This document shows, one piece after another, positions 8,357 to 55,660 of a stretch of DNA of 64,000 nt; the first letter of the stretch is position 1; every line of letters starts with the position of its first letter. The translations under genes were made by a program, and so were the position numbers. The stretch lies in NCBI GenBank assembly GCA_964561085.1, contig CAZLNP010000005.1:3151-67150 (forward strand), in the 5' to 3' direction. A model generated the notes under the pieces. It was not told the DNA's origin and did no database searches. It saw only the letters and a list, made by a program, of their open reading frames with translations. This stretch comes from an uncultured Candidatus Saccharibacteria bacterium. GTDB lineage: Bacteria > Patescibacteriota > Doudnabacteria > UBA920.

Positions 8357-8710
8357 TTAAAGATCACTAAATAATGATAGAATTGCATTTTCTAACTCTT
8401 CAATGCTAGAGAACGGCTTTAATAGAAATCTGTCAGCCGTGTGATTTTCCGGTGATTCCCCAGACATCAAGATAGTTTTAACATTTTTATTGTGATGCTG
8501 AACATTCTTGATTACTTCGGTTCCCCATCGGTCTGGGTTACCGTCCATGTGATTGTCACAAATAACCAAATCAAAATGATGGTTATTTGTAGCCTTAAGC
8601 GCGGCACTACCGTTGTCGCACACAGTAACTTCAAATCCAAAACTTTCAACGACAGAAGCAACTAGATTCAGAACCGCTGCTTCGTCGTCAGCCACTAAAG
8701 CAAACTTCAT
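8357..8710 (-). CDS. stand-alone response-regulator receiver domain protein
   Basis: CheY-like fold signature: ALVADDE acidic pocket, DLVICDNHM phospho-acceptor Asp region, ILMSGES. GGAGG RBS 9 nt upstream of the chosen ATG (MKFALV). Confidence 0.65.
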   Translation of the reverse strand: MKFALVADDEAAVLNLVASVVESFGFEVTVCDNGSAALKATNNHHFDLVICDNHMDGNPDRWGTEVIKNVQHHNKNVKTILMSGESPENHTADRFLLKPFSSIEELENAILSLFSDL

Positions 8711-8772
8711 TGTGTATTTTACCTCCGTCAAAATATGTTTGACTTTGTATACTAACATACATGTCTAAAATA

Positions 8773-8803
8773 AAAAAGACCAGCATTTTGCTGGCCTTGA
8801 TCA
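8773..8803 (-). terminator. Rho-independent terminator after infB
   Basis: Minus strand reads ggccagcaAAATgctggtc followed by a T-run. Confidence 0.55.
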
Positions 8804-8826
8804 TCTAAATATCTTTTCTTATTTAG

Positions 8827-10839
8827 CTAAAGCGTCTTCTGCTTAAGAGTTTCTTCAAAACTTTCGATCATATCGCCTTCTAGTACTTTGACATTGGTTT
8901 TAAGCTTCATGCCAAATTCGTTGCCACGCGCTACTTCTTTGGTATCGATCTTGCTTTGTTGTAAATCTACAATTTCACCACGGCCAACTTCTTTCCAGCC
9001 TTTGTACTCTTCTGTAGACTCTTCGCCTGACTCGTCATCAGATTCATCTTCTGTTGGCTCAGGATCTTCCGCTACAGCGACCTTACGCCAAATTGCAACT
9101 GGTTTATTCTTACGAATTTCACCGTCATCAACTTTACCACCAATAATCATTTGAGATTTTTCAGTACGGAAAATCGCTAAGATAGTTCCTGTGCCGAAAG
9201 TCGCCTTTTCCATTTCTGGAGTGAACATGGCAATTACTGCGCTAGTGATGTTTTCCAAAAGTTCGTAAATAACATCATAGCTTTCAATGGCAACTTTCTT
9301 TTGCTTCGCTAAGTTAATTGCCTTCGGATTAGTTTTGGTGTGGAAAGCAATTACAGTACCCTTGCTGCTGTCGGCAAGTAATACATCGCTTTCGTTGATC
9401 TCACCAATTCCTTCGCTCAAAATATTAATTTGAACCTCATCATTTTTAAGTTTAGAAAGAGATTGTTTAATAGCTTCCAAAGAACCAGCTACGTCTGCTT
9501 TCAAAATCAAATTCAAAGTTTTAGATTCGCTATCGCCTTGTAAGCTAGAACGGTTTGTCAGTTTACGGCTATGCTTCATCTTTTGCGCATTACTCGCAAT
9601 AGTACGAGCTTCGTCTAAACTTTCGTTTGTTTGCAAGATATCCCCTGCTTGAGGTAGATCGGAGAAACCAGAAATAAGCGCTGGGCGGCTTGGCGCAACG
9701 AATTTTAGTTTCTTACCGTGCTCATCTTCTAAAGATTTAACTTTACCGTACCCTGTACCTGCAACAATAATATCACCAACTTTTAGAGTTCCATTTTGCA
9801 CGATAACAGTTGCAACAGCACCTTTACCTTGCGCAACGTGAGATTCAATAACAGTACCTAAAACTTTTCCATTTGGGTTAGCTTTAAAATCTTCCACTTC
9901 GGCTTGAAGCAAAACCATTTCTAGAAGTTTATCTATACCAATGTTTTGTTTCGCAGAAATTTCAACAGCAATAACTTTTCCGCCCCAGTCTTCTAAAAGA
10001 ACGCCATGCTCTGCAAGCTCTTGCTTGGTTTTCATTACGTTGGCGTTTTCTTTATCAATTTTGTTGATCGCCACAATTAACGGTGTATTTGTAAATTTAG
10101 CACGATTGATAACTTCAATAGTTTGTGGACGAACACTGTCGTCTGCTGCCACAACTAAAATGATCATGTCGGTTACGTTTGCACCACGAGCACGCATTTC
10201 TACGAACGCTTCATGACCTGGAGTATCTAGGAAAGTGATAACTTTATCGTTGTGCTTGATTTGATACGCACCAATGTGCTGAGTGATTCCACCACTTTCA
10301 GTTTCAACAACACTTGCCTTGCGGATTGCATCAAGCAAAGTAGTTTTACCATGGTCAACGTGGCCCATTACAGCAACGATTGGTGGACGAGTCTCTAAGT
10401 TTTCTGATGACTCTTCATTTAGGCTTTCTTGTAAAAAGCCGATACCGAATTCTTTAGCTTCGCCTGTCTGTTCGGTAGCAACTTCAAATCCTAAATCTTG
10501 CGCAATAATAGTCGCAGTTTCAAAATCCACTTCTTCGTTAATAGTCGCCATTACTCCGTTAGTAATAAGCGCCTTGATAACATTTGTGACTGGCAGTTCA
10601 AGTAAGTCCGCAAAATCTCTCACTTTGATGAAAGCTGGCAAAGAAACCTTTTTCGCTTCTGGCTTAGGAGCGTTAGGGTCCAATTTTGGTTTTGGTTTCA
10701 AGGCTTCAACGATTTGCTTGGCTAAGTAGTTATCAATCTTGTTCGCGCGAGGAGATATACGAAAACCAGCTGCGTTTGCCTTTGTACGCAGGTCGTTGAT
10801 CGACATATTTAATTCGTGTGATAAAGATGATAAATTCAT
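8827..10839 (-). CDS. infB: translation initiation factor IF-2
   Basis: G-domain motifs GHVDHGKTTLLD, DTPGH, NKID. C-terminal beta-barrel domains. 670 aa. Confidence 0.95.
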   Translation of the reverse strand: MNLSSLSHELNMSINDLRTKANAAGFRISPRANKIDNYLAKQIVEALKPKPKLDPNAPKPEAKKVSLPAFIKVRDFADLLELPVTNVIKALITNGVMATINEEVDFETATIIAQDLGFEVATEQTGEAKEFGIGFLQESLNEESSENLETRPPIVAVMGHVDHGKTTLLDAIRKASVVETESGGITQHIGAYQIKHNDKVITFLDTPGHEAFVEMRARGANVTDMIILVVAADDSVRPQTIEVINRAKFTNTPLIVAINKIDKENANVMKTKQELAEHGVLLEDWGGKVIAVEISAKQNIGIDKLLEMVLLQAEVEDFKANPNGKVLGTVIESHVAQGKGAVATVIVQNGTLKVGDIIVAGTGYGKVKSLEDEHGKKLKFVAPSRPALISGFSDLPQAGDILQTNESLDEARTIASNAQKMKHSRKLTNRSSLQGDSESKTLNLILKADVAGSLEAIKQSLSKLKNDEVQINILSEGIGEINESDVLLADSSKGTVIAFHTKTNPKAINLAKQKKVAIESYDVIYELLENITSAVIAMFTPEMEKATFGTGTILAIFRTEKSQMIIGGKVDDGEIRKNKPVAIWRKVAVAEDPEPTEDESDDESGEESTEEYKGWKEVGRGEIVDLQQSKIDTKEVARGNEFGMKLKTNVKVLEGDMIESFEETLKQKTL

Positions 10840-36832: not shown

Positions 36833-38152
36833 ATGGTACAAATAAAAATGAAAAATTATTTTAAAAAGATTAGTAAATTTTCAGTGATCATAGCGGTCGC
36901 TGCTTTGTCATTGATATCAGCAGGGTGTGGTGGTGGTGAACAAACAGCAGATCCAGTAACTATTAAAATTTGGAAGCCATTTGTTGACTCAGATAAAATG
37001 CAGTCAATTATGTCGGCGTATCAAGCTAAGCATACGAACGTAACTTTTGAATATACAAAGAAAAATATAGAAAACTACGAAGCTGATTTGTTGAATGCAC
37101 TCGCTGCAGGAAACGGTCCCGATATTTACTCTATCAATAACACTTGGGTGCCAAGATATATGGATAAGATTACTCCAGCACCAGACAAAGTTTTTACAGT
37201 GAAAGACTATAAAGAAGCTTTCGTAGATTCGATGGTAACAGATCTGATTAAAGACAACAAAATTTACGGTACAGCTATGTGGGTGGATTCTTTAGGGTTA
37301 TATTACAACAAAGATTTAATGGGAACAGCAGGAATTGCGGTACCTCCGAAGACTTGGGATCAGCTTGCTGAACAATCTAGAAGAATTACTCGCCAAGATG
37401 CTAATGGCTATTTTAGCCGCAGTGGTGTTGCGATAGGTACAAACTCCAATGTTAATCGTGGTGTGGATGTTATTTATTTATTAATGCTCCAAGCCGGAAC
37501 AATTCCTTGGACTGCAGATGGAAGCTCTCCTCAATTTGCTGGCAGCGTTAACAAGGGTGGCAACCAAGTAAATCCAGGTGAAGAAGCAGTTAGTTTTTAC
37601 ACCTCATTCTCTGATCCTTCAGGAGGAAACTATACATGGAACGAAGCCAGTGATTACTCAACTGATGCATTTGCAAATGGAAGAGCCGCATTCCTATATG
37701 GATACTCATACGCTCGTGAGCAAATAGATGCTAAAGCGCCAAATTTAAATTACGATGTTGCGCCAGTCCCTCAAAATAATCTTGATAACCCAACTGTTAA
37801 CTACTCTAATTACTTCGCAGAAGTAGTTAGCAAACAAAGTAAGCAGTCAGCTTGGGCATGGGATTTCTTGAAATTTGCTACTAGCAAAGATTCTCTGGAT
37901 AAATACTATAAGACAGACAAGCAGCCATCATCACGCCGTGATTTGATTGAGTTGCAAACAAGCGATGTTGAAATTGGGGTATTTGCTCATGCAAACTTAA
38001 CTGGAAAAACTTTTTATAAAGCAGATGAAGCAAAGTTTGATGCAATCATCGGTGACATGATTGATAATATTGTTTTGCGTGGCCAGCCAGTTGAACAAGC
38101 TTTGACTCGAGCGCAGTCGCAAGCTAGTACTCTATCTTTGATAAGAAAATAA
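36833..38152 (+). CDS. ABC-transporter extracellular solute-binding lipoprotein (family 1, carbohydrate-type)
   Basis: Lipobox LISAGCGGG. SBP_bac_1-like length and composition. No permease or ATPase gene follows. Confidence 0.7.
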   Translation: MVQIKMKNYFKKISKFSVIIAVAALSLISAGCGGGEQTADPVTIKIWKPFVDSDKMQSIMSAYQAKHTNVTFEYTKKNIENYEADLLNALAAGNGPDIYSINNTWVPRYMDKITPAPDKVFTVKDYKEAFVDSMVTDLIKDNKIYGTAMWVDSLGLYYNKDLMGTAGIAVPPKTWDQLAEQSRRITRQDANGYFSRSGVAIGTNSNVNRGVDVIYLLMLQAGTIPWTADGSSPQFAGSVNKGGNQVNPGEEAVSFYTSFSDPSGGNYTWNEASDYSTDAFANGRAAFLYGYSYAREQIDAKAPNLNYDVAPVPQNNLDNPTVNYSNYFAEVVSKQSKQSAWAWDFLKFATSKDSLDKYYKTDKQPSSRRDLIELQTSDVEIGVFAHANLTGKTFYKADEAKFDAIIGDMIDNIVLRGQPVEQALTRAQSQASTLSLIRK

Positions 38153-38157
38153 ATCGA

Positions 38158-38934
38158 ATGACAAAAATATTGCATCAAATAAAAAATGTTGTAGTCACTA
38201 GCTTAAGCAAAGCAATTATTGTTGTATCTTTGTTTGCAACTTTGGGAATGGTTTATGCTCAGCTTGAACCTGTAGTTGTTGTGCAGGCGCAATCTGCAGA
38301 AGCTACAAAGATTGCGGAACAGACAGCTCAGTCGGTTTATCAAACTGCTCTAAAACAAGGTCAATCTAAACAGGAAGCTCAAGTTGTCTCAGATACAACG
38401 CGGGACAGCTTGTTAATTGTATATAAGACTACTTATGATTCTGCTAAAGCACTTAAAAAGACAGACGCTCAGGCTGAAAAAGAAGCAATAGAGGAAGAAA
38501 ATAAAGCTGCTCAGAAAATTATTGCGGCTTCTCAGCAGGCTATAGGTGGCACCAAAAAAACCAATACAACAACAACTCAGAATGGCGACGCGGGTGGTTT
38601 TGTACCTTGTGGGAACGAAGCAACTAATCCATGTCAGATTGGTCATCTATTTTCAGCCTTCGTAGTTATTATTAACTACCTCATTGCGATGGCAGGATTC
38701 ATCGCTGTAATTGCAATCGTTTATGCTGGGTTTATGATGGTTTACTCCCAAGGTCAAGAACAACTTAAAGCAGCCAAAGGTAGAATATCTGGTGCTGTTA
38801 TAGGACTAGTATTGGTGGCGGCCGCTTTCATTATTATTAACGCTATTTTTGCGGGTAGTCTGAGCATAGGTGTTAAAAGCGGTGGAAATATTTTATCAAG
38901 TCCACTTGATTACATTCAGAATGGCGGGAAGTAA
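38158..38934 (+). CDS. paralog 1 of tandem family: signal peptide + variable domain + C-terminal two-helix hairpin (TrbC/VirB2-pilin-like)
   Basis: C-terminus: FVVIINYLIAMAGFIAVIAIVYAGFMMVYSQGQEQLKAAKGRISGAVIGLVLVAAAFIIINAIF. Confidence 0.7.
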   Translation: MTKILHQIKNVVVTSLSKAIIVVSLFATLGMVYAQLEPVVVVQAQSAEATKIAEQTAQSVYQTALKQGQSKQEAQVVSDTTRDSLLIVYKTTYDSAKALKKTDAQAEKEAIEEENKAAQKIIAASQQAIGGTKKTNTTTTQNGDAGGFVPCGNEATNPCQIGHLFSAFVVIINYLIAMAGFIAVIAIVYAGFMMVYSQGQEQLKAAKGRISGAVIGLVLVAAAFIIINAIFAGSLSIGVKSGGNILSSPLDYIQNGGK

Positions 38935-38946
38935 TATATTAATACT

Positions 38947-39324
38947 ATGCAAACACTTTTAGCGCAAAAAATCGCTCAGAATAATAAAAACGTTAATGCT
39001 AAACCAGCTGCAAATACGAATGCGATCAATACCAACAAGAGTACACCTAAAGCGTCTACTGAGGTCGAAATAGCTAAAATAACCAACCCATTCCCTGTAT
39101 CAACATTACCAGGTGTGTTTAATCAGATTATCTATATTATTTTGGCACTAATAGTAATGGCCGCAGTTGTGGTAATTATAATCTCAGGTTTTCGCATGCT
39201 AACCGGAGGTAATAACCCAGATCAGTTAAAGAAGGCTAAGAAGGGAATAGTCTGGGCCATTATTGGTTTGGTCGTAGCCTTTATGTCTTTCGCAATTGTT
39301 ACAATTATTCAGAGAATTCTCTAA
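38947..39324 (+). CDS. paralog 2 (minimal: N-terminal tail + C-terminal two-helix hairpin)
   Basis: IYIILALIVMAAVVVIIISGFRMLTGGNNPDQLKKAKKGIVWAIIGLVVAFMSFAIVTIIQRIL. Confidence 0.7.
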   Translation: MQTLLAQKIAQNNKNVNAKPAANTNAINTNKSTPKASTEVEIAKITNPFPVSTLPGVFNQIIYIILALIVMAAVVVIIISGFRMLTGGNNPDQLKKAKKGIVWAIIGLVVAFMSFAIVTIIQRIL

Positions 39325-39328
39325 AACG

Positions 39329-40264
39329 ATGAATTTTAATTTAAAGTTAAAACTATATAATTTCTCAGTTGCTACGGCTTTGTTTATCTTTGTTTCGTCA
39401 GTATTTGGCGCAACACTTTTCTTTCAGCCTTTAATTACAAATGCTGCAACGGAAATTCCTGACGAGTTTAAAAAATGTATTCCTATCGTTAATAGTTTTT
39501 CTACAACTCCTGCAAAAGTCACTAAGAGAGATCAAAGTGTAAAGATGACGGTGACAGTTAGGACTCTGGGATGTATTATCGGAAACGTAAATGGAAAATC
39601 TCCAATGTGGAATGTTTTTGCTGAGGTGAAAGATGAGACAGGTAAAAGCGATGGAGGATTCGTTTTTCCATCGACCACCACATACATGAGCGGTGCAGAT
39701 TTCAAACAAGTAAATAAAAACGCTCAACACCCCGACTTTAATAAATATGATGCAACTTATACACGAACAGTTACTAATTTATTCGAAAATCTAAATGGCA
39801 ATACTCTTACCATTAGTCCGAACCTGCGTTGGGATGATTTTACACAGGTGGTAAACACTGGACTAGCAAAAAAAGTTACCGCCGGTGGAGCCGCTGTTAG
39901 TAATACGAATGCTAACGCTAACGCTAATACAAACACTGGAAACCCGAATGAGAACATTAATACAGACGTTAGTAGTAAATTTGATAAAGGGCTTGATGAA
40001 AAGATTGGTGACTTTTGGAATCCTCTTGAGAGAGACACCCTCCCAGAGTTGTTAGCAACTATTTTGAGAATTCTTTTTGCTCTAATTGGTATGGTAGCTG
40101 TGATTATTATCATCATTTCAGGATTCAGAATGGTGTTAGCAAGTGGCAATGAAACCGAGTTAACAAAAGCAAAGGCTGCAATCACTTGGGCGATAGTAGG
40201 GTTGATAGTTTCGCTAATGGCATTTAGTATCGTTGCAATTATCCAAAGATTAATCCAAGGATAA
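39329..40264 (+). CDS. paralog 3 (large Asn/Thr-rich ectodomain + C-terminal hairpin)
   Basis: Signal peptide, NTNANANANTNTGNPNENINT low-complexity tract, and hairpin ...IIISGFRMVLASGNETELTKAKAAITWAIVGLIVSLMAFSIVAIIQRLIQG. Start moved to the ATG after the upstream stop. Confidence 0.7.
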   Translation: MNFNLKLKLYNFSVATALFIFVSSVFGATLFFQPLITNAATEIPDEFKKCIPIVNSFSTTPAKVTKRDQSVKMTVTVRTLGCIIGNVNGKSPMWNVFAEVKDETGKSDGGFVFPSTTTYMSGADFKQVNKNAQHPDFNKYDATYTRTVTNLFENLNGNTLTISPNLRWDDFTQVVNTGLAKKVTAGGAAVSNTNANANANTNTGNPNENINTDVSSKFDKGLDEKIGDFWNPLERDTLPELLATILRILFALIGMVAVIIIIISGFRMVLASGNETELTKAKAAITWAIVGLIVSLMAFSIVAIIQRLIQG

Positions 40265-40285
40265 GTAAAATAAATTTTAAAGTAA

Positions 40286-40702
40286 ATGAAAAGTATAAAA
40301 AAAATATTTGCAGTATTAGGCGTCATAGTTTTCGCGTTTGGCGGTCTGTTAGTGTCTAGTGGAGTTAATGTTGCTACCGCGGCAGGTGACCCTTGTGCGG
40401 ATCTAGCAAAGCAAATCTCTGGAAGTGGTTTTGATGTAAAAAGCCAACTGCCGGTCTACTGTACTACTGAGTCTATCTACAACAAAATCTTATTTGGTGC
40501 CTTGTATGCGGTAGGAATTGTGGCAGTTATTATGATTATCTATGGTGGCTACATGTATATGACCGCTCAATCTAACGAGGATCAGAGGAAAAAGGGTCGC
40601 GATATTCTTACTTGGGCTGTGCTAGGTTTAGTAGTTGTTGTGCTCGCAGTGTTGCTCGTAAACGTAGTTGTGAACTTGGTTGTTGAAAACCGGTTTGTGT
40701 AA
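40286..40702 (+). CDS. paralog 4
   Basis: Signal peptide; ...AVIMIIYGGYMYMTAQSNEDQRKKGRDILTWAVLGLVVVVLAVLLV. Confidence 0.7.
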   Translation: MKSIKKIFAVLGVIVFAFGGLLVSSGVNVATAAGDPCADLAKQISGSGFDVKSQLPVYCTTESIYNKILFGALYAVGIVAVIMIIYGGYMYMTAQSNEDQRKKGRDILTWAVLGLVVVVLAVLLVNVVVNLVVENRFV

Positions 40703-40811
40703 TTCCCTAGATATAGTAGAATATAAGTACGTTACTCTTATATAAGAACCTGTTCGAGATTCGCTTTAGGTTCGCCGGCGGATCTTTACCAGCTTCATCC
40801 TCATCCGAAAG

Positions 40812-41240
40812 GTGGTGAAAAAATTGAAACAAACGTTGCAAAAACTTAATTGGTTAAACATTGCTCAACTTGTGTTCGTTCTATTGGTTGCTTTAGCTCC
40901 AGTATACGTTCCTCAAGTAGCAAAAGCTGGCTTGGTAGATACTTTTGTAAACAACTGTCCTGTTGATACTGGAGTTCGTTGTTCAGAAGGCAGCATTGCT
41001 GCTATCTTCCGTCTTATTATCAACTGGGCTCTAGCGATTGCGTTTATCGCAGCTGTTATCATGTTGATTTACGGTGGTTTCCTTTACATCACGTCAGCAG
41101 GAAACACAGATAATGCTACTAAAGGTAAGACAGCCATTACCAATGCTCTAGTCGGTGTCGTAATCATCGTACTTTCTTACATTATTGTTCAAATCGTGTA
41201 CAGATTCGTATCTGGTGGAAGCGGCTCTACTGGTATATAA
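40812..41240 (+). CDS. paralog 5
   Basis: Signal peptide; ...RLIINWALAIAFIAAVIMLIYGGFLYITSAGNTDNATKGKTAITNALVGVVIIVLSYIIVQIVY. Confidence 0.7.
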   Translation: MVKKLKQTLQKLNWLNIAQLVFVLLVALAPVYVPQVAKAGLVDTFVNNCPVDTGVRCSEGSIAAIFRLIINWALAIAFIAAVIMLIYGGFLYITSAGNTDNATKGKTAITNALVGVVIIVLSYIIVQIVYRFVSGGSGSTGI

Positions 41241-41336
41241 CAATTCTCCCGCATTTAATTTTAAAATGCGGGATAGCTCTGGGAACAAAATTAGACTTCC
41301 CAAAATTTTGTCTCCGGAGTTATTTAATAAAAAAAT

Positions 41337-41738
41337 ATGAAACAAAAAATTTCTTTATTCTTTCTTGGTGGATTAGTCTCAGTGATGGCACTTTTCGCCT
41401 TTGTCCCTAGCGCTACACCTGCTTACGCTCAGAATTCAGATTGTACCACTGATTGTGTACAGAGTGGCTTAACTGACATCCAGGATGCGTTTCCCAATAA
41501 AACCCAAAAGACTCTACCTGAGCTGGTTAAATTAGTAATTAACTGGGCGCTGTACTTGTCTGCTATCATCGCGGTAATCTTTATAATCATTGGTGGATTT
41601 ATGTACATTACTTCTGCTGGTGACCCTGGCAAGGCAAGCAAAGGACGCACTACTTTAGTAAACGCTTTAATTGGTTTAACTATAATTGTCCTTTCCTACT
41701 TGATCGTTCAAATTCTTTACGACTTCCTAACCTCTTAA
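41337..41738 (+). CDS. paralog 6
   Basis: Signal peptide; ...KLVINWALYLSAIIAVIFIIIGGFMYITSAGDPGKASKGRTTLVNALIGLTIIVLSYLIVQILY. Close to paralog 5. Confidence 0.7.
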   Translation: MKQKISLFFLGGLVSVMALFAFVPSATPAYAQNSDCTTDCVQSGLTDIQDAFPNKTQKTLPELVKLVINWALYLSAIIAVIFIIIGGFMYITSAGDPGKASKGRTTLVNALIGLTIIVLSYLIVQILYDFLTS

Positions 41739-41757
41739 GTTTAGGAATTAAAACAAA

Positions 41758-42573
41758 GTGAATATTTCTTTAAACCAAAATTTTTTACCAAAGATACTTC
41801 TCGCCATGCTTGTATTATTTAGCATGGCGCTCTTTGTTGTTCCAGTGAATGAGGTTGATGCTCAAGTAGTTAATACATACGCTTGCTTTAATCCAACTAC
41901 TAATACATTAACAGCTGCATCTGCAACGACAACTTGTCCTGCAGGATCCAATAGAGTCTTTGCTGATTCTAGGATGAATGGGTTCTGTCTTGCGAAGGAA
42001 AATGGAGTTAATACAGCTAAGGCCCCGTGGCCAGATTCAGCAGGCACAGGACCAAGTTTAGATTTCCTTGGTAAATCTTGTTTAGAAAAAGATGGTAGTG
42101 CAACCCGCGGAACCTTCACTCCTTTCCCAAAAGGCTCAACGACGCCAGTAACACCCACTAATACTAATACGGGAAATAATACTAACACTACTAAAAATAC
42201 AAACGGCACTACTGGCGGAGGAGTGGGTGGAGGAACCCAAAACCCTACCAGTAAAGGTGATTGTGAAGATAAATTCCACAAGGTAGGACCATTATGTGTG
42301 CCTAATAATCCTTTCAATAACAGTTCAATCGCTGGGGGTAACGCAACCGCGACTAGTTTGGCGCTAAGAATTATTCGCATTATGCTTTACTTTGCTGCAA
42401 TAGTCGCAGTGATCATGGCAATTATTGGCGGGTACCAGGTAATGACGGCTGGTGGAAACCCTACTCAGGCAGCTAGCGGACGCAAGACTCTAACAAACGC
42501 AGTGATTGGTTTAGCCATAATTCTATTAGCTTTTGTCATAGTTCAAGTCTTGGTAAACTTCATTACTAAATAG
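41758..42573 (+). CDS. paralog 7 (Thr/Asn/Gly-rich ectodomain + hairpin)
   Basis: Signal peptide; TPTNTNTGNNTNTTKNTNGTTGGGVGGG tract; hairpin ...IMLYFAAIVAVIMAIIGGYQVMTAGGNPTQAASGRKTLTNAVIGLAIILLAFVIVQVLVNF. Confidence 0.7.
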   Translation: MNISLNQNFLPKILLAMLVLFSMALFVVPVNEVDAQVVNTYACFNPTTNTLTAASATTTCPAGSNRVFADSRMNGFCLAKENGVNTAKAPWPDSAGTGPSLDFLGKSCLEKDGSATRGTFTPFPKGSTTPVTPTNTNTGNNTNTTKNTNGTTGGGVGGGTQNPTSKGDCEDKFHKVGPLCVPNNPFNNSSIAGGNATATSLALRIIRIMLYFAAIVAVIMAIIGGYQVMTAGGNPTQAASGRKTLTNAVIGLAIILLAFVIVQVLVNFITK

Positions 42574-42691
42574 TGCAAAATTATACTATTTTCAGCACTT
42601 CACATTCTCTAAAATATGTCGTATAATAAGGAACCAGAGCAATCTGGTTCTTTTTTAGAAGACTAGCTATTATTAGCTAGATATCACTCTT

Positions 42692-42778
42692 GCCGGAGTG
42701 GCGAAATTGGCAGACGCACCAGCCTTAGGAGCTGGCGGGGGCAACCCTGTGGAGGTTCAAGTCCTCTCTCCGGCACCA
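42692..42778 (+). tRNA. tRNA-Leu(TAG)
   Basis: GCCGGAG acceptor. Anticodon stem CCAGC/GCTGG with loop CTTAGGA. Long variable arm. T arm GGAGG-TTCAAGT-CCTCT. Encoded CCA. Confidence 0.85.
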
Positions 42779-42826: not shown

Positions 42827-44749
42827 ATGGGCAAGATTGTAAAAAATATTATTTTAGTCCTAATCGGATTTTTAATTATCTCAGTAATCGTTGCTTCATT
42901 TACTACTAGCAAAGAAGTAAAATCTGTCCCTCTATCAGAAGTTTCTAGTTTAATAAAAGATGATAAAGTAGAAAGCATCGAAGTTAACTCAGATTCGATT
43001 CAAACTAAACTTAAAGATAGCGACAGTAAACTAAAGTCTACTATCGGTGCTCGCACAGATATTCCGAAATACTTTATAGACTCTGGCGTACCTGAAGAAA
43101 AAATCAGCAACATCAAAATTGAATTTAATACTCCTGGCACAGCTAGCCAAGTAGCTGGTGCAATTTTGCCATTCCTGATTCCCTTCGTCTTAATCGCGTT
43201 GTTCATATATTTCTTAATGCGCCAAGTTCAAGGTTCTAACAATCGCGCATTAACTTTTGGACAAAGTTCTGTAAAGCTAAATGATGAACAAAAAAATAAA
43301 GTTCGCTTTGATGATGTAGCTGGTGCAAAGGAAGCGAAAGAAGAACTTTCTGAAATTGTTCAGTTCTTACGTTTCCCTCAAAAGTTTTTAGCGCTTGGTG
43401 CAAAGATCCCTAAAGGTGTTTTACTTCTAGGTAGCCCGGGTGTTGGTAAGACCATGCTTGCTCGTGCAGTTGCAGGAGAAGCGAATGTACCTTTCTTCCA
43501 CATCTCTGGATCTGAATTCGTAGAAATGTTTGTGGGTGTTGGTGCAAGTCGTGTTCGTGATTTGTTCAAGAAAGCAAAACGTAATGCGCCTTGTATTGTT
43601 TTTATCGATGAAATTGATGCCGTTGGTCGTCAGCGTGGTGCTGGTGTCGGTGGCGGTCACGATGAACGTGAACAAACCTTAAACCAAATCTTAGTAGAGA
43701 TGGACGGTTTCGAAACAGATACTAATGTAATTGTTGTTGCGGCTACAAACCGCCCTGATGTTCTAGATCCAGCTTTGCTTCGTCCTGGCCGTTTTGACAG
43801 ACAAGTAATTCTAGACCTTCCAGATATTAACGATCGAGAAGCGATCCTGAAAATTCACAGTAAGAATAAACCTTTTGCTGAAGGCGTTGACCTAAGAAAG
43901 ATTGCAGAGCGCACCCCAGGTTTCTCCGGTGCAGATTTGGCTAACTTGGTTAACGAAGGTGCAATTTTGGCAGCCCGTACAGATAAAAAACAAATTGATG
44001 GTGGCGACTTAAAAGAAGCTATTGAAAAGATCATTGTGGGTCCTTCACGAAAGAGTCACCTAATGAGTGCTGATGAAAAGAAGGTTACTGCCTATCATGA
44101 AGGTGGACATGCCTTGGTTGGCTCTGTATTGCCTGAATCCGACCCAGTTCACAAAGTGACTATTCTATCTCGAGGACGCGCATTAGGTTACACCATGAAG
44201 CTTCCAACAGAAGATAAGCACATGAGCACCAAGGGCGCTTTCCTAGATGAAATTGCTGCACTAATTGGTGGCTACGCTGCTGAGAAATTAATCTTCGGTC
44301 GCTTAACTACTGGTGCTAGCAATGATTTGAAGGTTGCTACAAATATGGCGCGCAAGTTAATTACACAGTACGGAATGAGTGAAGCGTTTGGCCCAGTTGT
44401 TTTAGGCGAACAGCATGAAAACGTATTCCTTGGTCGCGATATGGGTGAACAGAAGAATTACAGTGAAGATACAGCTCAGAAAATTGATGCAGAGGTCCGT
44501 CGCATTATGACTGAAGGTGAAGCTCGTGCTACTCAAATTTTGACTCAGCACAGAACCTATCTAGATACTATTGCTGATCGTTTGCTAAAAGAAGAAACTT
44601 TGGAACAAGAAGAGTTTACAGAAATTGTAAAAGATCTTATTCCTGCAAATAAGAAGAGGCTTCCAGAATTTGATAAAGTTGCTCCAGATAATTCTGCTGA
44701 TGGAATGAACATTCCTCAAGAGCCAATTACTCCTCCTGCCCAAGCCTAG
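42827..44749 (+). CDS. ftsH: ATP-dependent zinc metalloprotease FtsH
   Basis: Two TM helices. AAA+ motif [17 protein letters not shown]. Zinc motif HEGGHAL. C-terminal proline-rich tail. Confidence 0.95.
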
Positions 44750-44767: not shown

Positions 44768-45655
44768 GTGATGAGTTACAAAGAGGTTTTATCTCAAGCC
44801 TACGCACTAACTATCCGCAATCCACTGCTATGGATATTCGGAATAGTTATGCTCGGGGGATTTAACCTCTTTTTGATTAACTTTTTTTCGTTAATCCCTG
44901 GTGGACAATGGAAAGTTTGGCCAACTCACTTTGAGAATATGTTTGATTCCTCAATCTTAAGCTGGCTGACTTTTTTAGTAGCAGTTGTGATAATATTTAC
45001 AGCTTTAAATTTTGTTAAGATAGTTTTTATTGTAATAGTTCACGGGCTAATTCATGCAAAATTACAAAATGAGTGTATGTTATGTACAAAGTTGTCTACC
45101 GATGAAGAATCTCAAAAACCACTACCGTATTTACTCTGGCTAGTAAATGTTGTAATTGCTAGCGCCTTCACTATTCTTCTAACATTGGGCATAACTTTAG
45201 CTGCTAACTCAGTACTAAGGTCTCAGGGGTATGATAGTCCTGGTGCAATAGTCGTTAACCTTTTGTTTATTGCAGTTTTAACTTGTGCTATTGGGACTTG
45301 GAATATTTTCACAAACTATTTTATAATTTGGCACGGACTCAAATTTTCTGCAGCATCGGCGGCGGCAATTGACTTAATAGTTAAGCGTGCCAGGATTATC
45401 ATGGAGTTTGTTATATTACTCTCGTTAGTTTATTCATTGTCCGTAGCGGTTGGCAATATTCTCATTCAAACTTGGCATTCCGAATTGTTGATGGGCACGA
45501 TGCCGGCAATAAGACTCATCTTTTTGATTGTTCCTATTATCTGGTTCGCGATTAACAACGCTTTTTTTAATGTCGCTTTTCTTATATTTTTTGATAGAAT
45601 AGTTAAAGCTATTCCTAGTGAAAAATCACAGCCATCTATTTATCCCGCTGCGTAG
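44768..45655 (+). CDS. polytopic membrane protein, hypothetical
   Basis: 295 aa with ~7 hydrophobic helices. No motif recognised. Confidence 0.5.
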   Translation: MMSYKEVLSQAYALTIRNPLLWIFGIVMLGGFNLFLINFFSLIPGGQWKVWPTHFENMFDSSILSWLTFLVAVVIIFTALNFVKIVFIVIVHGLIHAKLQNECMLCTKLSTDEESQKPLPYLLWLVNVVIASAFTILLTLGITLAANSVLRSQGYDSPGAIVVNLLFIAVLTCAIGTWNIFTNYFIIWHGLKFSAASAAAIDLIVKRARIIMEFVILLSLVYSLSVAVGNILIQTWHSELLMGTMPAIRLIFLIVPIIWFAINNAFFNVAFLIFFDRIVKAIPSEKSQPSIYPAA

Positions 45656-50236: not shown

Positions 50237-51634
50237 ATGAAGAACAGATTAGTATGTTTTGTCGTTCTTGCGATTGTGGTTTTAATGCCGCATTCGCTAA
50301 ACGCTCAGACTCGCCAACTCTCATTGAGAGGAATAGTGAGAGAGCTTGTTGTGGAAATGGATGCTGGGCGTTCGGAAAGTAAGTATTTTCTAGAAGTTGA
50401 TGGAGACTCTTATCCGTTAACAACGAAATTAGATCTAAGTTCGCTTGCGAACTATAAGGTCGAAGTTCTTGGGAAACTTACCAACAACACCGTTCGCGTT
50501 TCTAGTGCCTTGCCTTTGGAAGAGATTCCGGAAGTTAGACAAAAGATCTTTCCCAATGGTATGCACTCCTTTGATGTCGAATCAAAGGAAGATCACAGGC
50601 TTGCGGTGTTCACGCCTGCTCCAACAGAAGGTATTAGGAATATAGGTTTCTTTGGTTTTAAGTTTTCTGATGATCTTAGTGAACCGCTTAGTCCTGAGCA
50701 AATTTACAACCTTACGTTGGCCTCTGATGTTCAAGGTCCAACGCTCAAGGGGCTTATTGATAAGGCTGCTGGGTCAAAATTCTCGATTACTGGATTAGTG
50801 CATCCTGAATGGATTACTATTCCTCATACTCGAGCTTTCTGCGCAGCTGGTGCAAATATGTTTAATGCTTGCACTAATTCAGCGAAGAGTCTCTTGCAAG
50901 ATCGAGGTGTAATCCTTTCCTCTTATAAAACATTAGCCTTTTTCCATCCACCCATTCCTGGTAGCACTGTTGGCCCTATGGCCACCCAAGGAGTAAAGGG
51001 CGATTCAAGTGTTCAGGGAACAATATGGGTGCCATTAACACCTTCGGCCATCAGCAGGCTTCCACAGATCTTAGCTCATGAGTTAGGTCACAATCTTGGT
51101 TTTGGCCACTCTGGTGCAATGGGCGGTGATGGACAAGTTTACACCGTCGCAGATAGAGGTTGCTATATGGGTGGTTCGATGGCGATGCTAAATATTTATT
51201 ATAGGATAATGGCTGGCTGGGTTACAGGTAAAATAGTAACCATCAGCGGTCCAGGAACTTATGATGTGTATTTGCACCCAGCAGATAAAGTAGTAAAAGG
51301 GAATAAAGGTGTGGTTATCCAAACCCGTGATTCTAATGGAGTGCAACATGCTGACCTCACTTTTATCGAGGCGAGGAGGTTATTGCTACCATATGAGGAT
51401 TTCCTCCAAAACATGTCCTATGCCACTGGGGCAATTATCAGGAAAGGGTTGCAAGATATGACCTTGGCGCAAAGTGTGCCAACGGTGCTACCAACATCAA
51501 CCAATCCCAATCCTGACTTTAACCCATTACAATTGGGAGATGTTTATACTGACTCAACTAAGGGACTGACTGTTCAGCATTTTCCATCTTCGATTTCCAG
51601 AGGGATGTGGCTTCGGATTACTCTTAACCAGTGA
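50237..51634 (+). CDS. secreted zinc metalloprotease (metzincin-like HExxHxxGxxH)
   Basis: Signal peptide MKNRLVCFVVLAIVVLMPHSLNA. HELGHNLGFGHS zinc-binding motif. Confidence 0.65.
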   Translation: MKNRLVCFVVLAIVVLMPHSLNAQTRQLSLRGIVRELVVEMDAGRSESKYFLEVDGDSYPLTTKLDLSSLANYKVEVLGKLTNNTVRVSSALPLEEIPEVRQKIFPNGMHSFDVESKEDHRLAVFTPAPTEGIRNIGFFGFKFSDDLSEPLSPEQIYNLTLASDVQGPTLKGLIDKAAGSKFSITGLVHPEWITIPHTRAFCAAGANMFNACTNSAKSLLQDRGVILSSYKTLAFFHPPIPGSTVGPMATQGVKGDSSVQGTIWVPLTPSAISRLPQILAHELGHNLGFGHSGAMGGDGQVYTVADRGCYMGGSMAMLNIYYRIMAGWVTGKIVTISGPGTYDVYLHPADKVVKGNKGVVIQTRDSNGVQHADLTFIEARRLLLPYEDFLQNMSYATGAIIRKGLQDMTLAQSVPTVLPTSTNPNPDFNPLQLGDVYTDSTKGLTVQHFPSSISRGMWLRITLNQ

Positions 51635-51770
51635 TTCGGAGTAGTACCCCCTACTGTGAATATTTTGGCCGCGCTTCAATGTAAGTGCGGTCTTTTTTTT
51701 TGACTTTAGTTAAAATTTATGCTATACTAATCGTAGATTACTTAGTGCAAGAAATAAAAAAAATACAAAA

Positions 51771-52247
51771 ATGAATAAGAAGATAGAACTCATCGCAATT
51801 ATTGTTGGTCTTGGGGCTGTTGTAGCCGCAGGTTTTTATTTTTATAACCAACAGAATTTAGATAAAGTTGCAGAGATTGAGAACGTACCCTTCTCAGTAG
51901 ATAAAAAAGAACTTAATACAACACAGGTTCCAAGTGGATTTCCTGCAGATTTCCCAGTAGAACCGGGGTCTCGCATAGTAAAGAACTATGAAGCTACTAC
52001 TAGCGACGGAAGACTTCAGTCTACTAGGTCTCTCACAACAAATAAAACCTTAGAACAAGCCGCACAAAGCTACGCTGATTATTTCATCGATCTTGGTTGG
52101 ACTGAAGTTGAGTCTCAAAATCCAGATTCTAATACTTCTAATTCGTTATTGCGAAGAAAAGATAATATATTGCTGATAGTTGCTAGGAACAATCCTGCTA
52201 CTAAAGAAAAAACAGTGGAAGTTACTCTCACTGAAGCAGCTAAATAA
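51771..52247 (+). CDS. membrane-anchored hypothetical protein (paralog of 55689..56177)
   Basis: N-terminal TM helix. Shares ...P.GFP...P.EP......NY.A...DGR.Q.TR...T.KTL......Y..Y....GW..ES......KTV...LTE with the downstream paralog. Confidence 0.55.
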   Translation: MNKKIELIAIIVGLGAVVAAGFYFYNQQNLDKVAEIENVPFSVDKKELNTTQVPSGFPADFPVEPGSRIVKNYEATTSDGRLQSTRSLTTNKTLEQAAQSYADYFIDLGWTEVESQNPDSNTSNSLLRRKDNILLIVARNNPATKEKTVEVTLTEAAK

Positions 52248-52264
52248 AACAAAAATTAATAATT

Positions 52265-55200
52265 ATGAAAATCAAAAATTTTTACATTTCATTTATAGCA
52301 GCTGCAATTACATTAAGTTCTTTTGTTCCTGTTTTACCAGCTGAAGTACTTCCCCGAGTTTTAGAAACAAAAGTAGTTAGAGCAGCAGAAGATCAACCAA
52401 ACTGGTTCCAAGTAAGCGTTAAAGATCATAATTGTAGCGACCAAACAGGCTCTTCTTCTTTAGTAGGTCCTAATGGATCAGCTGCGGCTACAGATTCAAA
52501 CGCAAAGGACCCTGATTGTGGTAATATTAGTTTTAATACTTCTAGTGTCTCAGGTGTTGGTTTAACTGAGACTATATATAACAATGACTTCCGTATTGGC
52601 ACTAGACTAGCAGAAAGCGAAAGTGGTTGTAGTCGTGATGCTGGTGATATCCGTTGGACACCATGGGCGTCTGAAGGCGGAGGAGCCGGTTGGGGTGCAA
52701 CAGCAAACTCAAACGTTAACGATCCAGACTGTTTATGGATTCATTATGAAACTCGTCCTTTGCCAGCTGGAATCTTAATTCAAGATGTTCGCGCCGGAAT
52801 TTCTACAGGACACGGTGGTTTTGCATTTACCCCTTGGGCTCGCCAAGGTGGCGGATCTTCATCTTATTCTGGTGGTGGTAACATAAGCCCAGCTAGATTA
52901 TTTTTGGATGTGAGATTAGTAGATGTATATGATGCAGAGTATGTTTCTGATACTGTTCCAGCTTCAATGAACCGTGGGCAGAGTGGAGACTATGAGATTG
53001 TAATGAAGAACAAAGCAACCACTTGGCAAACAGATTTCCCTTCATATGCACAAACAGATGAATGCTCTTCTCAACAGCCAGAAGATGTTCAAGAGGGAGA
53101 AACTTGTACTGCTGTTGTTCAAGGTCATTCTACAAAAATCAAGCTAAAAAGCTTAAATGATATTACTGGCATAACCACAACCCCGGAGCCAGAATTAGAA
53201 TATCGTCGTGAAATAGTTCGTGAATATGTAGCTGCGGATGTGTGTATTAACTTCGATGGTTCTTTTGCAGGCCCAAGCGGTGGCGGTGTAGAAGGTGGTG
53301 GCGACGAAGGAATTAAGGGTGGTTTTTTGACACCTTTAATTAAAACAGCACAAGCGTTGCGTCTGCCAGATGATATTGAACCAGGCGACACAGGTCCTTA
53401 TTGTAATGAATGGGGATATATGTTTGCGCTAGTTAACCAAACTCCTACAAATATGAACATCGTAAATGAAGACGATGGATCATTCCCAATCTCGGTGCAG
53501 ATTGGTGCTACAGCCACTAATGGTACTCATACTTTGCAGTACCAGATGGTAAATTTAGATACAAATGAACTCTTCGGTGAAATTGCTAACATTGATATCT
53601 CTATTGGTGCTGGGTTAAACTGCGGCTTAGATGTCACTGTTCCTGTGGGAACCGAAGCGCAATATGCTATCGCGGCAACTGGAACCCCTTCTGCTCCAAT
53701 TTCTGTCACTATGTCTAGCGCGCCAACCGGTCCAACAATGATTAATAACCCGCCAGTTCAGAACAATCCATTAGTCCTGAACTCGGGAAATAGTTTCGCA
53801 GGCACAGCTTATGTCGCTACAACAGGATTAACCGCTGGTTCATACATCCTAACTTTTACAGGCGATAACGGAAGCAGTTGTCAGTCAAATTTGCTGCTAA
53901 CAGCAATACAACCAACCGTAAGCCTATTCTTTAATGGTTCCGGTACTCCTGTTGTGTTAGGTGTTGGTATAACTTCTGGAACTCTCAGTTGGACGACAGA
54001 AAATGCTGCTAGTTGTACCGCATCGACTAACCCAGGTACTAATTCCATTACTCCACAATGGGACAATTCAACTGTTATTAGTTTGCCTGATGGCTCTCTG
54101 GCAGTATCAAACATTCAACCTGGTATTTTATATACCTTTGCTATTACATGCACTAGTAGTACTGGCGATTCTACATATGGCTCAGTCCAAGTTTCAACAA
54201 CCGCAGTTGTCCCACCAGTTCCTACAGCTAATATTCAATGTCAGGGATCGGTACGTGGTATAACAGAAGGTCCTTGTGGAATTGGTTACGGTGAGTCAGG
54301 AACAATTTTCTGGTCATCAACAGATGCTACCGCATGTTCCATTGATAATGGTATAGGTAGTGGCCTTGATCCAAATAATTCTACTATTGGAGTTTCAACA
54401 GGAAACTTGTATTCAACTACTACTTTCACAATTACATGTAGCGGACCTGGCGGAACAAGCGCACCTGACTCCGTTGTATTTGATGTTCCAACTGTTCAGC
54501 CATCATTCACGCTAACATGTACCCCTGCATCAATTAGTCTTCCACAAGGAAGCACTGGTAGTTTTGATCTAGAAACAACAGGGCTTTATGGTTTCGCAGA
54601 TAGAGTTGATTTCTCAAACACTGATATATCTCCAAGACCGGATACTGCACCAGGAATTACTTTTGACAACAATGGACAAGTTCCAGATGCGGTAACAACT
54701 GCATTAGTCGATACTTCAGGTGCAACCCCTGGAATTTTCACTTTAACATTTGAAGGCACTGGTGGTGGCAATACAGAAAGCTGTAGCGTAGAATTAGAAA
54801 TTACTTCTATTAATCCACCTACAGTAGACATTGCTGTCACTGCATCAAATGCTAATTGTGGAACTATCGACATATCATGGAAAAACCCTGGAGGTTCTCC
54901 GGACCCAGGCTCCTTCCGTGTTTACCACAGACTTACTACTAAAGAACCATGGGTTCAAATAGGTGAAAAAGATACTACTTATGATCCTAGTGGTTCATAT
55001 GTGGTGACTCACTCCGAGAGCCCACCATTAAGCTTAGATTCTTCTAATTACTATGCAGTCACAGCTCTATTTAGCGGAATAGAATCTGATTATGTACTTG
55101 CAGACCCTACTTCTATCATTCCTCAAGCCTGTTCGCCAAACACAAGCCGTTCAGATAAAGACGTACTTTCTGTAGCTGGTCAAATTAATAAAACCTTTAA

Positions 55201-55660
55201 CGCAGTAGCGTGTAGTGGTGTATCAGAAATTGCTTCTCTACCAAATAATGCTGTGTTTGCACCTGGAGATAGGGTTACTTTCCAAATTAACGTTTGTAAT
55301 TCAGGAGCAGGAACACTTACTGGTGTTTCAGTCTTCGATACCCTGAAGAACCTTTCAGGTGTTACAGATATCAGTTCGCCACAGGGATGTATAAATGGTC
55401 AAAATTACGATGAAAAGAGCGGTACTATTAGCTTTGACCTAGCTGATATTGGCCCTGGGGATGTTTCAACTCAGTCTTGTAGCATAGTATTCACAGCTAC
55501 AGTGACTGCACCAGAGGCTGCTACAGGAGCTCTATACAGATTCCAAAATATTGCTAACATCACAACCAACGAATTGGCTCAGTATCAAGTTCTAACACCA
55601 CCATATTTGTTTAGCTTAACTGGCGGTGTGCCAGACCGTACTGAAACAGCTCCTAATTAA
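52265..55660 (+). CDS. large secreted Thr/Ser/Gly-rich surface protein (1131 aa), probable adhesin-like
   Basis: Signal peptide. Repeated beta-rich segments and Cys pairs. FN3/Ig-like stretch ...NCGTIDISWKNPGGSPDPGSFRVYHR.... Confidence 0.6.
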   Translation: MKIKNFYISFIAAAITLSSFVPVLPAEVLPRVLETKVVRAAEDQPNWFQVSVKDHNCSDQTGSSSLVGPNGSAAATDSNAKDPDCGNISFNTSSVSGVGLTETIYNNDFRIGTRLAESESGCSRDAGDIRWTPWASEGGGAGWGATANSNVNDPDCLWIHYETRPLPAGILIQDVRAGISTGHGGFAFTPWARQGGGSSSYSGGGNISPARLFLDVRLVDVYDAEYVSDTVPASMNRGQSGDYEIVMKNKATTWQTDFPSYAQTDECSSQQPEDVQEGETCTAVVQGHSTKIKLKSLNDITGITTTPEPELEYRREIVREYVAADVCINFDGSFAGPSGGGVEGGGDEGIKGGFLTPLIKTAQALRLPDDIEPGDTGPYCNEWGYMFALVNQTPTNMNIVNEDDGSFPISVQIGATATNGTHTLQYQMVNLDTNELFGEIANIDISIGAGLNCGLDVTVPVGTEAQYAIAATGTPSAPISVTMSSAPTGPTMINNPPVQNNPLVLNSGNSFAGTAYVATTGLTAGSYILTFTGDNGSSCQSNLLLTAIQPTVSLFFNGSGTPVVLGVGITSGTLSWTTENAASCTASTNPGTNSITPQWDNSTVISLPDGSLAVSNIQPGILYTFAITCTSSTGDSTYGSVQVSTTAVVPPVPTANIQCQGSVRGITEGPCGIGYGESGTIFWSSTDATACSIDNGIGSGLDPNNSTIGVSTGNLYSTTTFTITCSGPGGTSAPDSVVFDVPTVQPSFTLTCTPASISLPQGSTGSFDLETTGLYGFADRVDFSNTDISPRPDTAPGITFDNNGQVPDAVTTALVDTSGATPGIFTLTFEGTGGGNTESCSVELEITSINPPTVDIAVTASNANCGTIDISWKNPGGSPDPGSFRVYHRLTTKEPWVQIGEKDTTYDPSGSYVVTHSESPPLSLDSSNYYAVTALFSGIESDYVLADPTSIIPQACSPNTSRSDKDVLSVAGQINKTFNAVACSGVSEIASLPNNAVFAPGDRVTFQINVCNSGAGTLTGVSVFDTLKNLSGVTDISSPQGCINGQNYDEKSGTISFDLADIGPGDVSTQSCSIVFTATVTAPEAATGALYRFQNIANITTNELAQYQVLTPPYLFSLTGGVPDRTETAPN

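Follow-up and report, generated by a model that had tools for sequence, protein, structure and literature searches.

What does a run of seven related membrane-protein genes, set between housekeeping genes of a bacterial chromosome, contribute to a cell that lives on the surface of another bacterium? The question is raised by a 64,000-nt stretch of contig CAZLNP010000005.1 (positions 3,151 to 67,150; hereafter the window) from an uncultured Candidatus Saccharibacteria bacterium, in which seven open reading frames (ORFs) in a row, here called g1 to g7, occupy positions 38158-42573 of the + strand and end in a common hydrophobic module. Saccharibacteria and other Patescibacteria are ultrasmall and live attached to host bacteria, and a type IV secretion system (T4SS)-like machine with its pilin array is among the few functions genetically shown to be essential for this epibiotic life style (PMC10633639, PMC12857230). 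We consider it probable that the seven genes form a Saccharibacteria array of VirB2-like pilins (T4SS_pilin) that belongs to this Patescibacteria T4SS-like apparatus, with a division of labour among its members and with the g3 ectodomain as a recombining cassette. The kind of array is known from published work; what appears to be additional here is its position apart from T4SS genes, the strict positional orthology of its members, with purifying selection on the four that differ from a second strain, and the presence of a single swappable ectodomain.

The C-terminus of all seven products consists of a module of ~75 aa in which two hydrophobic helices (Kyte-Doolittle peaks of 2.3-3.5) are joined by a G-G-(F/Y)...(S/G)-G-N turn and a short K/R-rich loop. 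Signal and topology calls were made from hydropathy segments and AlphaFold2 models, and the latter predict helical hairpins for g3 and g4 (helices 62-93 and 98-136 in g4). These results bear out a preliminary description of the locus, which had reported a seven-gene + strand array with a shared C-terminal hairpin of two transmembrane helices and a short positively charged loop. Module identity between paralogues is 24-51% pairwise, with A, V, G, A and G as invariant columns, and a hidden Markov model (HMM) built from the seven modules detects these seven copies and no others in the window. Scores of 94-122 bits per module with this HMM, and of 22-48 bits with PF18895, an independent Pfam model, place the array far beyond chance. 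The regions N-terminal of the module, spanning 43-238 aa, share 4-28% identity between paralogues in global alignment and are therefore unrelated and not alignable, as had been proposed, and the signal peptides claimed for most members are recognizable by hydropathy in six of the seven products as a signal-like hydrophobic segment with an A-x-A-type site, g2 being the product without one.

Gaps of 12, 4, 21, 109, 96 and 19 bp separate the genes when g3 is taken from the ATG at 39329, 4 bp past the g2 stop. The mechanical ORF start of g3, a TTG at 39296, was rejected as an over-call that overlaps g2. We also rejected a read-through fusing g1 and g2, which are in the same frame and separated by a TAA and four codons, since their orthologues lie in different frames. 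Consensus scanning for promoters and terminators returned sites no more frequent than in shuffled sequence.

Assignment of the module to a protein family draws on several models. PF18895 (T4SS_pilin) matches all seven products, six of them at or above its gathering cut-off of 26.6 bits (g2 47.6, g3 40.5, g4 47.3, g5 38.5, g6 40.0 and g7 35.0 bits); g1 falls under the cut-off with 22.4 bits (E 1.3e-4), scores 94 bits against the module HMM, and has positional orthologues that likewise give weak PF18895 matches. The architecture of this family, a signal segment followed by two helices and a basic loop at the C-terminus, is found here, with the signal segment lacking in g2. In NCBIfam, each of the seven products has its best match in NF045849 (Mbov_0395 family pilin-like conjugal transfer protein), for which g4 lies above the cut-off of 40 bits (43.8) and the others below it (g6 38.4, g2 37.1, g3 28.4, g1 23.6, g7 22.9 and g5 22.3). 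Matches to PF04956 (TrbC/VirB2) all stay under the cut-off of 27.9 bits (g2 25.1 bits, E 2.1e-5; g6 22.1, E 1.8e-4; g4 15.9, E 0.015), and g1, g3, g5 and g7 give no match to this family; in precomputed annotation, distant homologues of g4 and g7 bear PF18895 and PF04956 together. Profile comparison with hhalign was not significant either for Agrobacterium VirB2 against the seven-sequence profile (probability 0.3%; the VirB2 query was checked against annotated virB2 genes at 100% identity) or for a 476-sequence module profile against a five-sequence VirB2 alignment (probability 0.9%, E 0.064). No pilin was found in a module profile search of PDB sequences, and a fold search for the hairpin gave non-specific matches. 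The TrbC/VirB2-like identity put forward in the preliminary description is hence upheld as membership in the PF18895 pilin family, but not as demonstrated similarity to VirB2 itself, and the name T4SS pilin-like is supported by curated Pfam and NCBIfam families, by topology and by genomic association in other lineages. Holins, which had been named as an example of a competing family, gave no match in PHROGs, nor did any other rival family; that database returned three families of unknown function (E 0.002-0.004) and nothing else.

Module homologues are abundant in sequence space, with 83,742 cluster representatives among 1.84 billion matching the seven-module profile at E <= 1e-3. The top matches to this profile (P0084-P0233) are single predicted proteins carrying 3-17 pilin modules, such as P0087, with 17 stretches in 1775 aa. 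Such multi-module proteins may be genuine polyproteins; alternatively, gene callers may have joined whole arrays into one, owing to stop-codon read-through or an incorrect genetic code.

Comparison with related loci indicates that the seven genes are conserved individually. In all syntenic relatives the best matches of g1-g7 are positions 1-7 respectively, orthologue identity is well above paralogue identity, and one-to-one orthologues are found for each position in species with orthologue identity as low as 39-92%. Ancient and individually conserved as they are, the seven subunits are probably non-redundant. The most conserved member is g5, with orthologues 87-97% identical in the module and 64-84% in the N-terminal part, and it is a likely candidate for the major subunit. 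The two-Cys loop of g4 is kept among its orthologues in alignment, and the Cys-rich ectodomain of g7 is conserved; most g7 homologues (~45 of 67) are collinear with the query over 93-100% of its length, with 37-48% identity. Between species, on the other hand, g1, g2 and g3 show no conservation in their N-terminal parts. In g1, a Q/A/K/E-rich and probably helical insertion of ~95 aa (38293-38543) separates the signal peptide from the conserved FVPCGNEATNPC core; it is absent in the orthologues at loci L089, L005 and L003, and g1 orthologues measure 166-193 aa. The signal peptide lacking in g2 is present in the more distant L003 orthologue (8666-9109) and absent in the close L005, L088 and L089 orthologues. 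The hypervariable ectodomains of the preliminary description thus hold between paralogues, whereas between orthologues the term applies clearly to g3, partly to g1 and g2, and not to g4, g5, g6 and g7, which are collinear with their orthologues.

A strain represented by locus L001, compared over window positions 38960-42727, is 94.6% identical over the array in a mosaic fashion: identity is 100% between the g3 module and the g5-g6 spacer, both included, and synonymous divergence reaches 0.09-0.37 in g2, g3, g6 and g7 (~0.36 in both g6 and g7). Such a pattern suggests recent recombination inside the array, a chimeric contig being another possibility. The ratio of nonsynonymous to synonymous divergence (pN/pS) relative to L001 is 0.04-0.15 per gene in the four differing genes (g6 0.08, g7 0.13), which places g2, g3, g6 and g7 under purifying selection; the differing modules (g2, g6 and g7) give values of 0.00-0.09 and the N-terminal parts 0.06-0.17. 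Strict orthology and purifying selection together argue against pseudogenes and simple antigenic-variation cassettes, and on these grounds we reject silent cassettes and the possibility, raised in the preliminary description, that one copy is expressed and the others are pseudogenes.

A truly swappable ectodomain is found in g3 alone. At loci L088 and L089 the sequence across 39315/39330-39913/39934 is unrelated to that of the window, although both flanks agree with it at 89-92% identity; the replacement begins at the start codon of g3 and reaches into the Asn/Thr-rich linker, the repeats of which constitute repeat family D1. In a broader set of g3 homologues the last ~107 residues are ~60-99% identical, and the N-terminal domains are unrelated, range from 66 to 321 aa and in some cases contain FN3. 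Among 36 g3-type proteins we distinguish at least 9 unrelated N-domain clusters, with nearly all C-terminal parts at least 60% identical, and C-terminal parts sharing 92% identity or more are combined with three different N-domains. Foldseek comparison of the modelled g3 sandwich yields weak matches to immunoglobulin (Ig)-V-like, Gram-positive pilus/adhesin and Wzt carbohydrate-binding domains, including the group B Streptococcus pilus backbone 4uzg and the adhesin Sgo0707 4igb, both weak. No long or inverted repeats able to drive conversion within the array were detected; intra-array gene conversion was set aside, with just 18-31-nt linker-type repeats present. Exchanged between near-identical strains, the g3 domain is an obvious candidate for a determinant of host specificity. 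The literature searched, as far as its accessible text goes, describes neither ectodomain exchange in these pilins nor their location between a solute-binding protein (SBP) gene and ftsH.

The array is embedded in ordinary chromosome, the order of genes in the window being IF-2, FtsK, RodZ-like, RecA, DEDDh exonuclease, LspA, ComM, GalU, SBP, the array, tRNA-Leu, FtsH, RNase III, SMC, S16, TrmD and RNase Y. The start of g1 lies 5 bp downstream of the stop of the SBP_bac_1 gene, which is probably co-transcribed with the array. Every syntenic relative has this SBP gene immediately 5' of its pilin array, and more distant versions occur in L030 and L035, the latter being a five-gene version of the syntenic array. 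The order RecA-Exo-LspA-ComM-GalU-SBP-seven pilins-FtsH-transmembrane protein-RNase III-SMC is kept in L003-L006 and L009-L012, though g4 orthologues there are merely 49-62% identical. The nearest relatives in a collection of species-representative genomes are metagenome-assembled genomes of Candidatus Saccharibacteria/Saccharimonadales, and nearly all of the 78 related loci hold arrays of 5-9 module genes.

Among the window ORFs of at least 110 aa that were scanned, over 38 kb upstream and 21 kb downstream of the array, no T4SS Pfam family was identified, and tblastn searches with T4SS-locus proteins from other Saccharibacteria gave no match to the window or to the corresponding loci of syntenic relatives, in agreement with the earlier remark that VirB4, VirB6 and VirD4 genes are not nearby. 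In this clade the array lies at least 21-38 kb from any T4SS gene. In ~55 other Saccharibacteria loci, by contrast, it adjoins conserved T4SS-locus genes, which encode a PrgI/VirB3-family protein, proteins of ~1000 and ~825 aa and two proteins of 316 aa. The locus shows that the pilin array is separable from T4SS genes on the chromosome, and, with none detected in the window or the syntenic loci, the functional link to a T4SS is drawn from other lineages.

Arrays of divergent VirB2-like pilin genes have already been published for Saccharibacteria (PMC7427843, PMC10633639, PMC12102498), and the array as such is consequently not a new system. According to the accessible parts of these reports, an array was first noted in Nanosynbacter lyticus TM7x as a 'secreted protein array' (McLean et al. 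2020, PMC7427843), and Ca. Southlakia epibionticum ML1 carries a six-gene pilin array within its T4SS cluster SEML1_0006-0019 (Wang et al. 2023, PMC10633639) that is essential for epibiotic growth (PMC10633639, PMC12857230). Using PF18895 and PF04956, Quinonero-Coronel et al. (2025) found that 383 assemblies, above all from Microgenomatia and Saccharimonadia, contain 441 arrays, each with 2-11 pilin genes; paralogue identity averaged 25% and did not exceed 54%, and of 1948 Patescibacteria assemblies 1135 have the pilin gene close to virB4 (PMC12102498). The locus analyzed here resembles these arrays in its Saccharibacteria host, its PF18895 membership, its signal peptides, the tandem arrangement of seven genes with gaps of 4-109 bp and its low paralogue identity. 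It differs from them in lying outside a T4SS cluster, between the SBP lipoprotein and FtsH genes, at a position fixed across the clade; proximity to virB4 or other T4SS genes is usual in the published arrays, though not obligatory. Neither strict positional orthology nor strain-level replacement of the g3 ectodomain is mentioned in the accessible text of these accounts.

Characterized TrbC/VirB2 pilins (the Agrobacterium VirB2 T-pilin, RP4 TrbC and F TraA) share the leader peptide, the two hydrophobic helices and the short basic loop, but they occur in diderm hosts and as one gene, whereas here a monoderm carries seven paralogues, which add Cys-loop regions or ectodomains of 150-230 aa N-terminal of helix 1. 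To our knowledge, no such additional regions are known from VirB2, TrbC or TraA. The Mbov_0395/MMCAP2_0565 family (NF045849) is matched over its whole 80-position model, which corresponds to the same hairpin module, and its members come from wall-less, monoderm Mycoplasma, where they reside on integrative and conjugative elements with a T4SS of mating-pair-formation type FATA (MPF-FATA); six of the seven products nevertheless stay below its equivalog cut-off, and the Mycoplasma proteins, to judge by the family name, are encoded by single small genes of such elements and not by chromosomal arrays with ectodomains. The match to this monoderm MPF-FATA family bears on the published claim that Gram-positive-type T4SSs lack VirB2 homologues, and on the origin of Patescibacteria pilins. 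Modular type IV pilus (T4P) pilins with grafted domains and sortase-pilus adhesins also combine a conserved polymerisation or anchor module with a variable Ig- or lectin-like domain carried on a filament. This is an analogy only, the anchor modules and assembly machines being unrelated, and no sequence relationship was found between such pilins and the array proteins. In Bartonella and Anaplasma phagocytophilum, T4SS pilins of the VirB2 type are likewise tandemly amplified and diverged, and have been proposed to broaden interaction with host surfaces (PMC12102498). Those organisms are, however, diderms that infect eukaryotic cells, and their arrays form part of the virB locus, whereas the copies analyzed here are ancient, positionally conserved and under purifying selection, and variation takes the form of N-terminal domain exchange in one member.

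Under the pilin reading that we favour, the C-terminal hairpin would insert each product into the cytoplasmic membrane with the basic loop in the cytoplasm and both ends outside, and a cleavable signal peptide would be removed from six of the seven. The resulting membrane pool would supply distinct, non-redundant subunits to the pilus- or channel-like extracellular part of a T4SS-like apparatus, presumably encoded elsewhere in the genome and needed for growth on the host bacterium. The short conserved subunits, g5 foremost and then g4, g6 and g2, may polymerise into the body of this structure, from the surface of which the N-terminal ectodomains of g1, g3 and g7, the predicted minor subunits, would project. 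Strains would exchange the Ig-like ectodomain of g3 by recombining at two breakpoints, one at the start of the gene and one within the Asn/Thr-rich linker, and this ectodomain most likely sets the host surface that is recognised. Several points weigh against this reading. The product of g2 has no signal peptide and that of g1 scores under the Pfam cut-off; neither the window nor the corresponding loci of syntenic relatives yielded a T4SS component; a helical filament of the VirB2 type would hardly accommodate ectodomains of 150-230 aa if each subunit bore one; and a 2025 review describes pilus formation by monoderm Patescibacteria T4SSs as an open possibility, crediting them with the 'potential to elaborate conjugative pili' (PMC12857230). 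A more far-reaching version, which we hold with considerable doubt, is that the array moved out of the T4SS locus into an operon with the SBP lipoprotein gene and now forms a self-standing host-contact organelle, its specificity reprogrammed by horizontal exchange of one Ig-like cassette, that of g3. If so, g3 would act as a 'receptor-binding pilin' on a VirB2-type scaffold and would provide a concrete host-range determinant for epibiotic ultrasmall bacteria.

Autonomous surface display, in which the hairpin is a mere anchor for adhesins or receptors in the cell membrane of this wall-poor monoderm, possibly acting with the SBP and requiring neither polymerisation nor a T4SS, is in our view an unlikely explanation, yet the one with the most in its favour among those that dispense with a pilus. 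It draws on the uncoupling of the array from T4SS-locus genes and its fixed place next to the SBP gene, on the sizeable ectodomains of three members, including an Ig-like sandwich such as adhesins often have, and on the standing of pilus formation in Patescibacteria as a possibility in the review cited above; because the array has been relocated beside the SBP, it is somewhat more plausible here than in other lineages. What speaks for the pilin array instead is that the four short members would expose 20-35 residues after signal cleavage, too few for an adhesin, and yet are the most conserved, that the module family adjoins T4SS genes in most of the Saccharibacteria loci examined, as in the published survey of assemblies, and that hairpin conservation as high as that of g5 suggests protein-protein packing rather than bare anchoring.

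The divergence of the paralogues in module and N-terminal parts and the recombination mosaicism between strains could also suggest antigenic or phase variation, with one expressed pilin and silent or alternative copies swapped to evade host or phage, an idea raised in the literature for the Bartonella and Anaplasma VirB2 paralogues (PMC12102498). We judge it quite improbable here: all seven copies possess a start codon of their own and six a signal peptide as well, the one-to-one orthologues and low pN/pS ratios described above speak for individual function, long or inverted repeats are lacking, and variation is centred on g3 and comes from outside the array. Slighter still is the chance that the genes encode Sec-secreted effector or toxin subunits exported by the T4SS in the manner of pertussis ptx/ptl, the reading given to the TM7x array in 2020 (PMC7427843) and consistent with signal peptides on six of seven products; two strongly hydrophobic helices at each C-terminus predict retention in the membrane, Pfam and NCBIfam assign the products to pilin families, no toxin or enzyme domain was found, and later papers reinterpret the array as pilins (PMC10633639, PMC12102498). 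As small proteins with two transmembrane helices, the products might finally recall holins or similar membrane proteins of a prophage or mobile element, but the null PHROGs result and the housekeeping flanks (RecA, ComM, GalU, FtsH, RNase III and SMC), free of phage or integrase genes and syntenic across species, effectively refute such an origin.

Table 1. Coordinates of the array genes, the parts of g3 and the adjoining features, as positions in the window (pLDDT, predicted local distance difference test)
Feature	Position	Strand	Description
g1	38158-38934	+	258 aa; signal segment, insertion, FVPCGNEATNPC loop, module ~38614-38850, conserved 25-aa C-terminal tail
g2	38947-39324	+	125 aa; no signal peptide; Asn/Thr/Lys-rich N-terminal tail; module ~39076-39321
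g3	39329-40264	+	311 aa; signal peptide, Ig-like beta-sandwich, linker, hairpin
g3 cassette	39330-39913	+	signal peptide and beta-sandwich; replaced in L088 and L089; right breakpoint in AAT/ACN-rich linker
g3 beta-sandwich	residues 45-190, nt 39461-39898	+	AlphaFold2 pLDDT 80-94
g3 Asn/Thr-rich linker	residues 191-233	+	disordered, pLDDT < 50
g3 hairpin	residues 238-310, nt 40040-40258	+	AlphaFold2
g4	40286-40702	+	138 aa; signal peptide, conserved two-Cys loop C-x21-C, module ~40445-40684
g5	40812-41240	+	134-142 aa (start may be TTG 40836); module ~40977-41213
g6	41337-41738	+	133 aa; signal peptide, C-x3-C loop, module ~41481-41732
g7	41758-42573	+	255-271 aa (gene callers: ATG 41806); Cys-rich ectodomain, Thr/Asn/Gly-rich linker, module ~42319-42570
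Solute-binding lipoprotein (SBP_bac_1/SBP_bac_8)	36833-38152	+	Pfam; 439 aa, ...SAGC lipobox-like signal
tRNA-Leu(TAG)	42692-42778	+	ARAGORN, Rfam; downstream array boundary
FtsH protease	42827-44749	+	Pfam, synteny; conserved downstream neighbour

The coordinates of the array and its neighbours are collected in Table 1. The SBP lipoprotein gene has no adjacent ABC permease or ATPase genes. Directly 3' of the FtsH gene, positions 44768-45655 encode a polytopic membrane protein of 295 aa that has no Pfam match and occupies the same place in all syntenic relatives, at 32-56% identity. Further downstream, the interval 50237-55660 encodes predicted secreted or surface proteins that have no family assignment (465 and 158 aa), together with a 1131-aa protein bearing a C-terminal DUF11 repeat, and this cluster possibly comprises further cell-surface or host-contact proteins. 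Near the other end of the window, a tRNA-Phe(GAA) gene on the - strand (6309-6597) has its anticodon loop split by a 214-nt group I intron (RF00028, 66.4 bits, 6351-6575); it was missed by the default tRNA scan and found by ARAGORN with introns allowed. Just downstream of it, at 5548-6243 on the - strand, lies a gene for a 231-aa HTH_23 protein.

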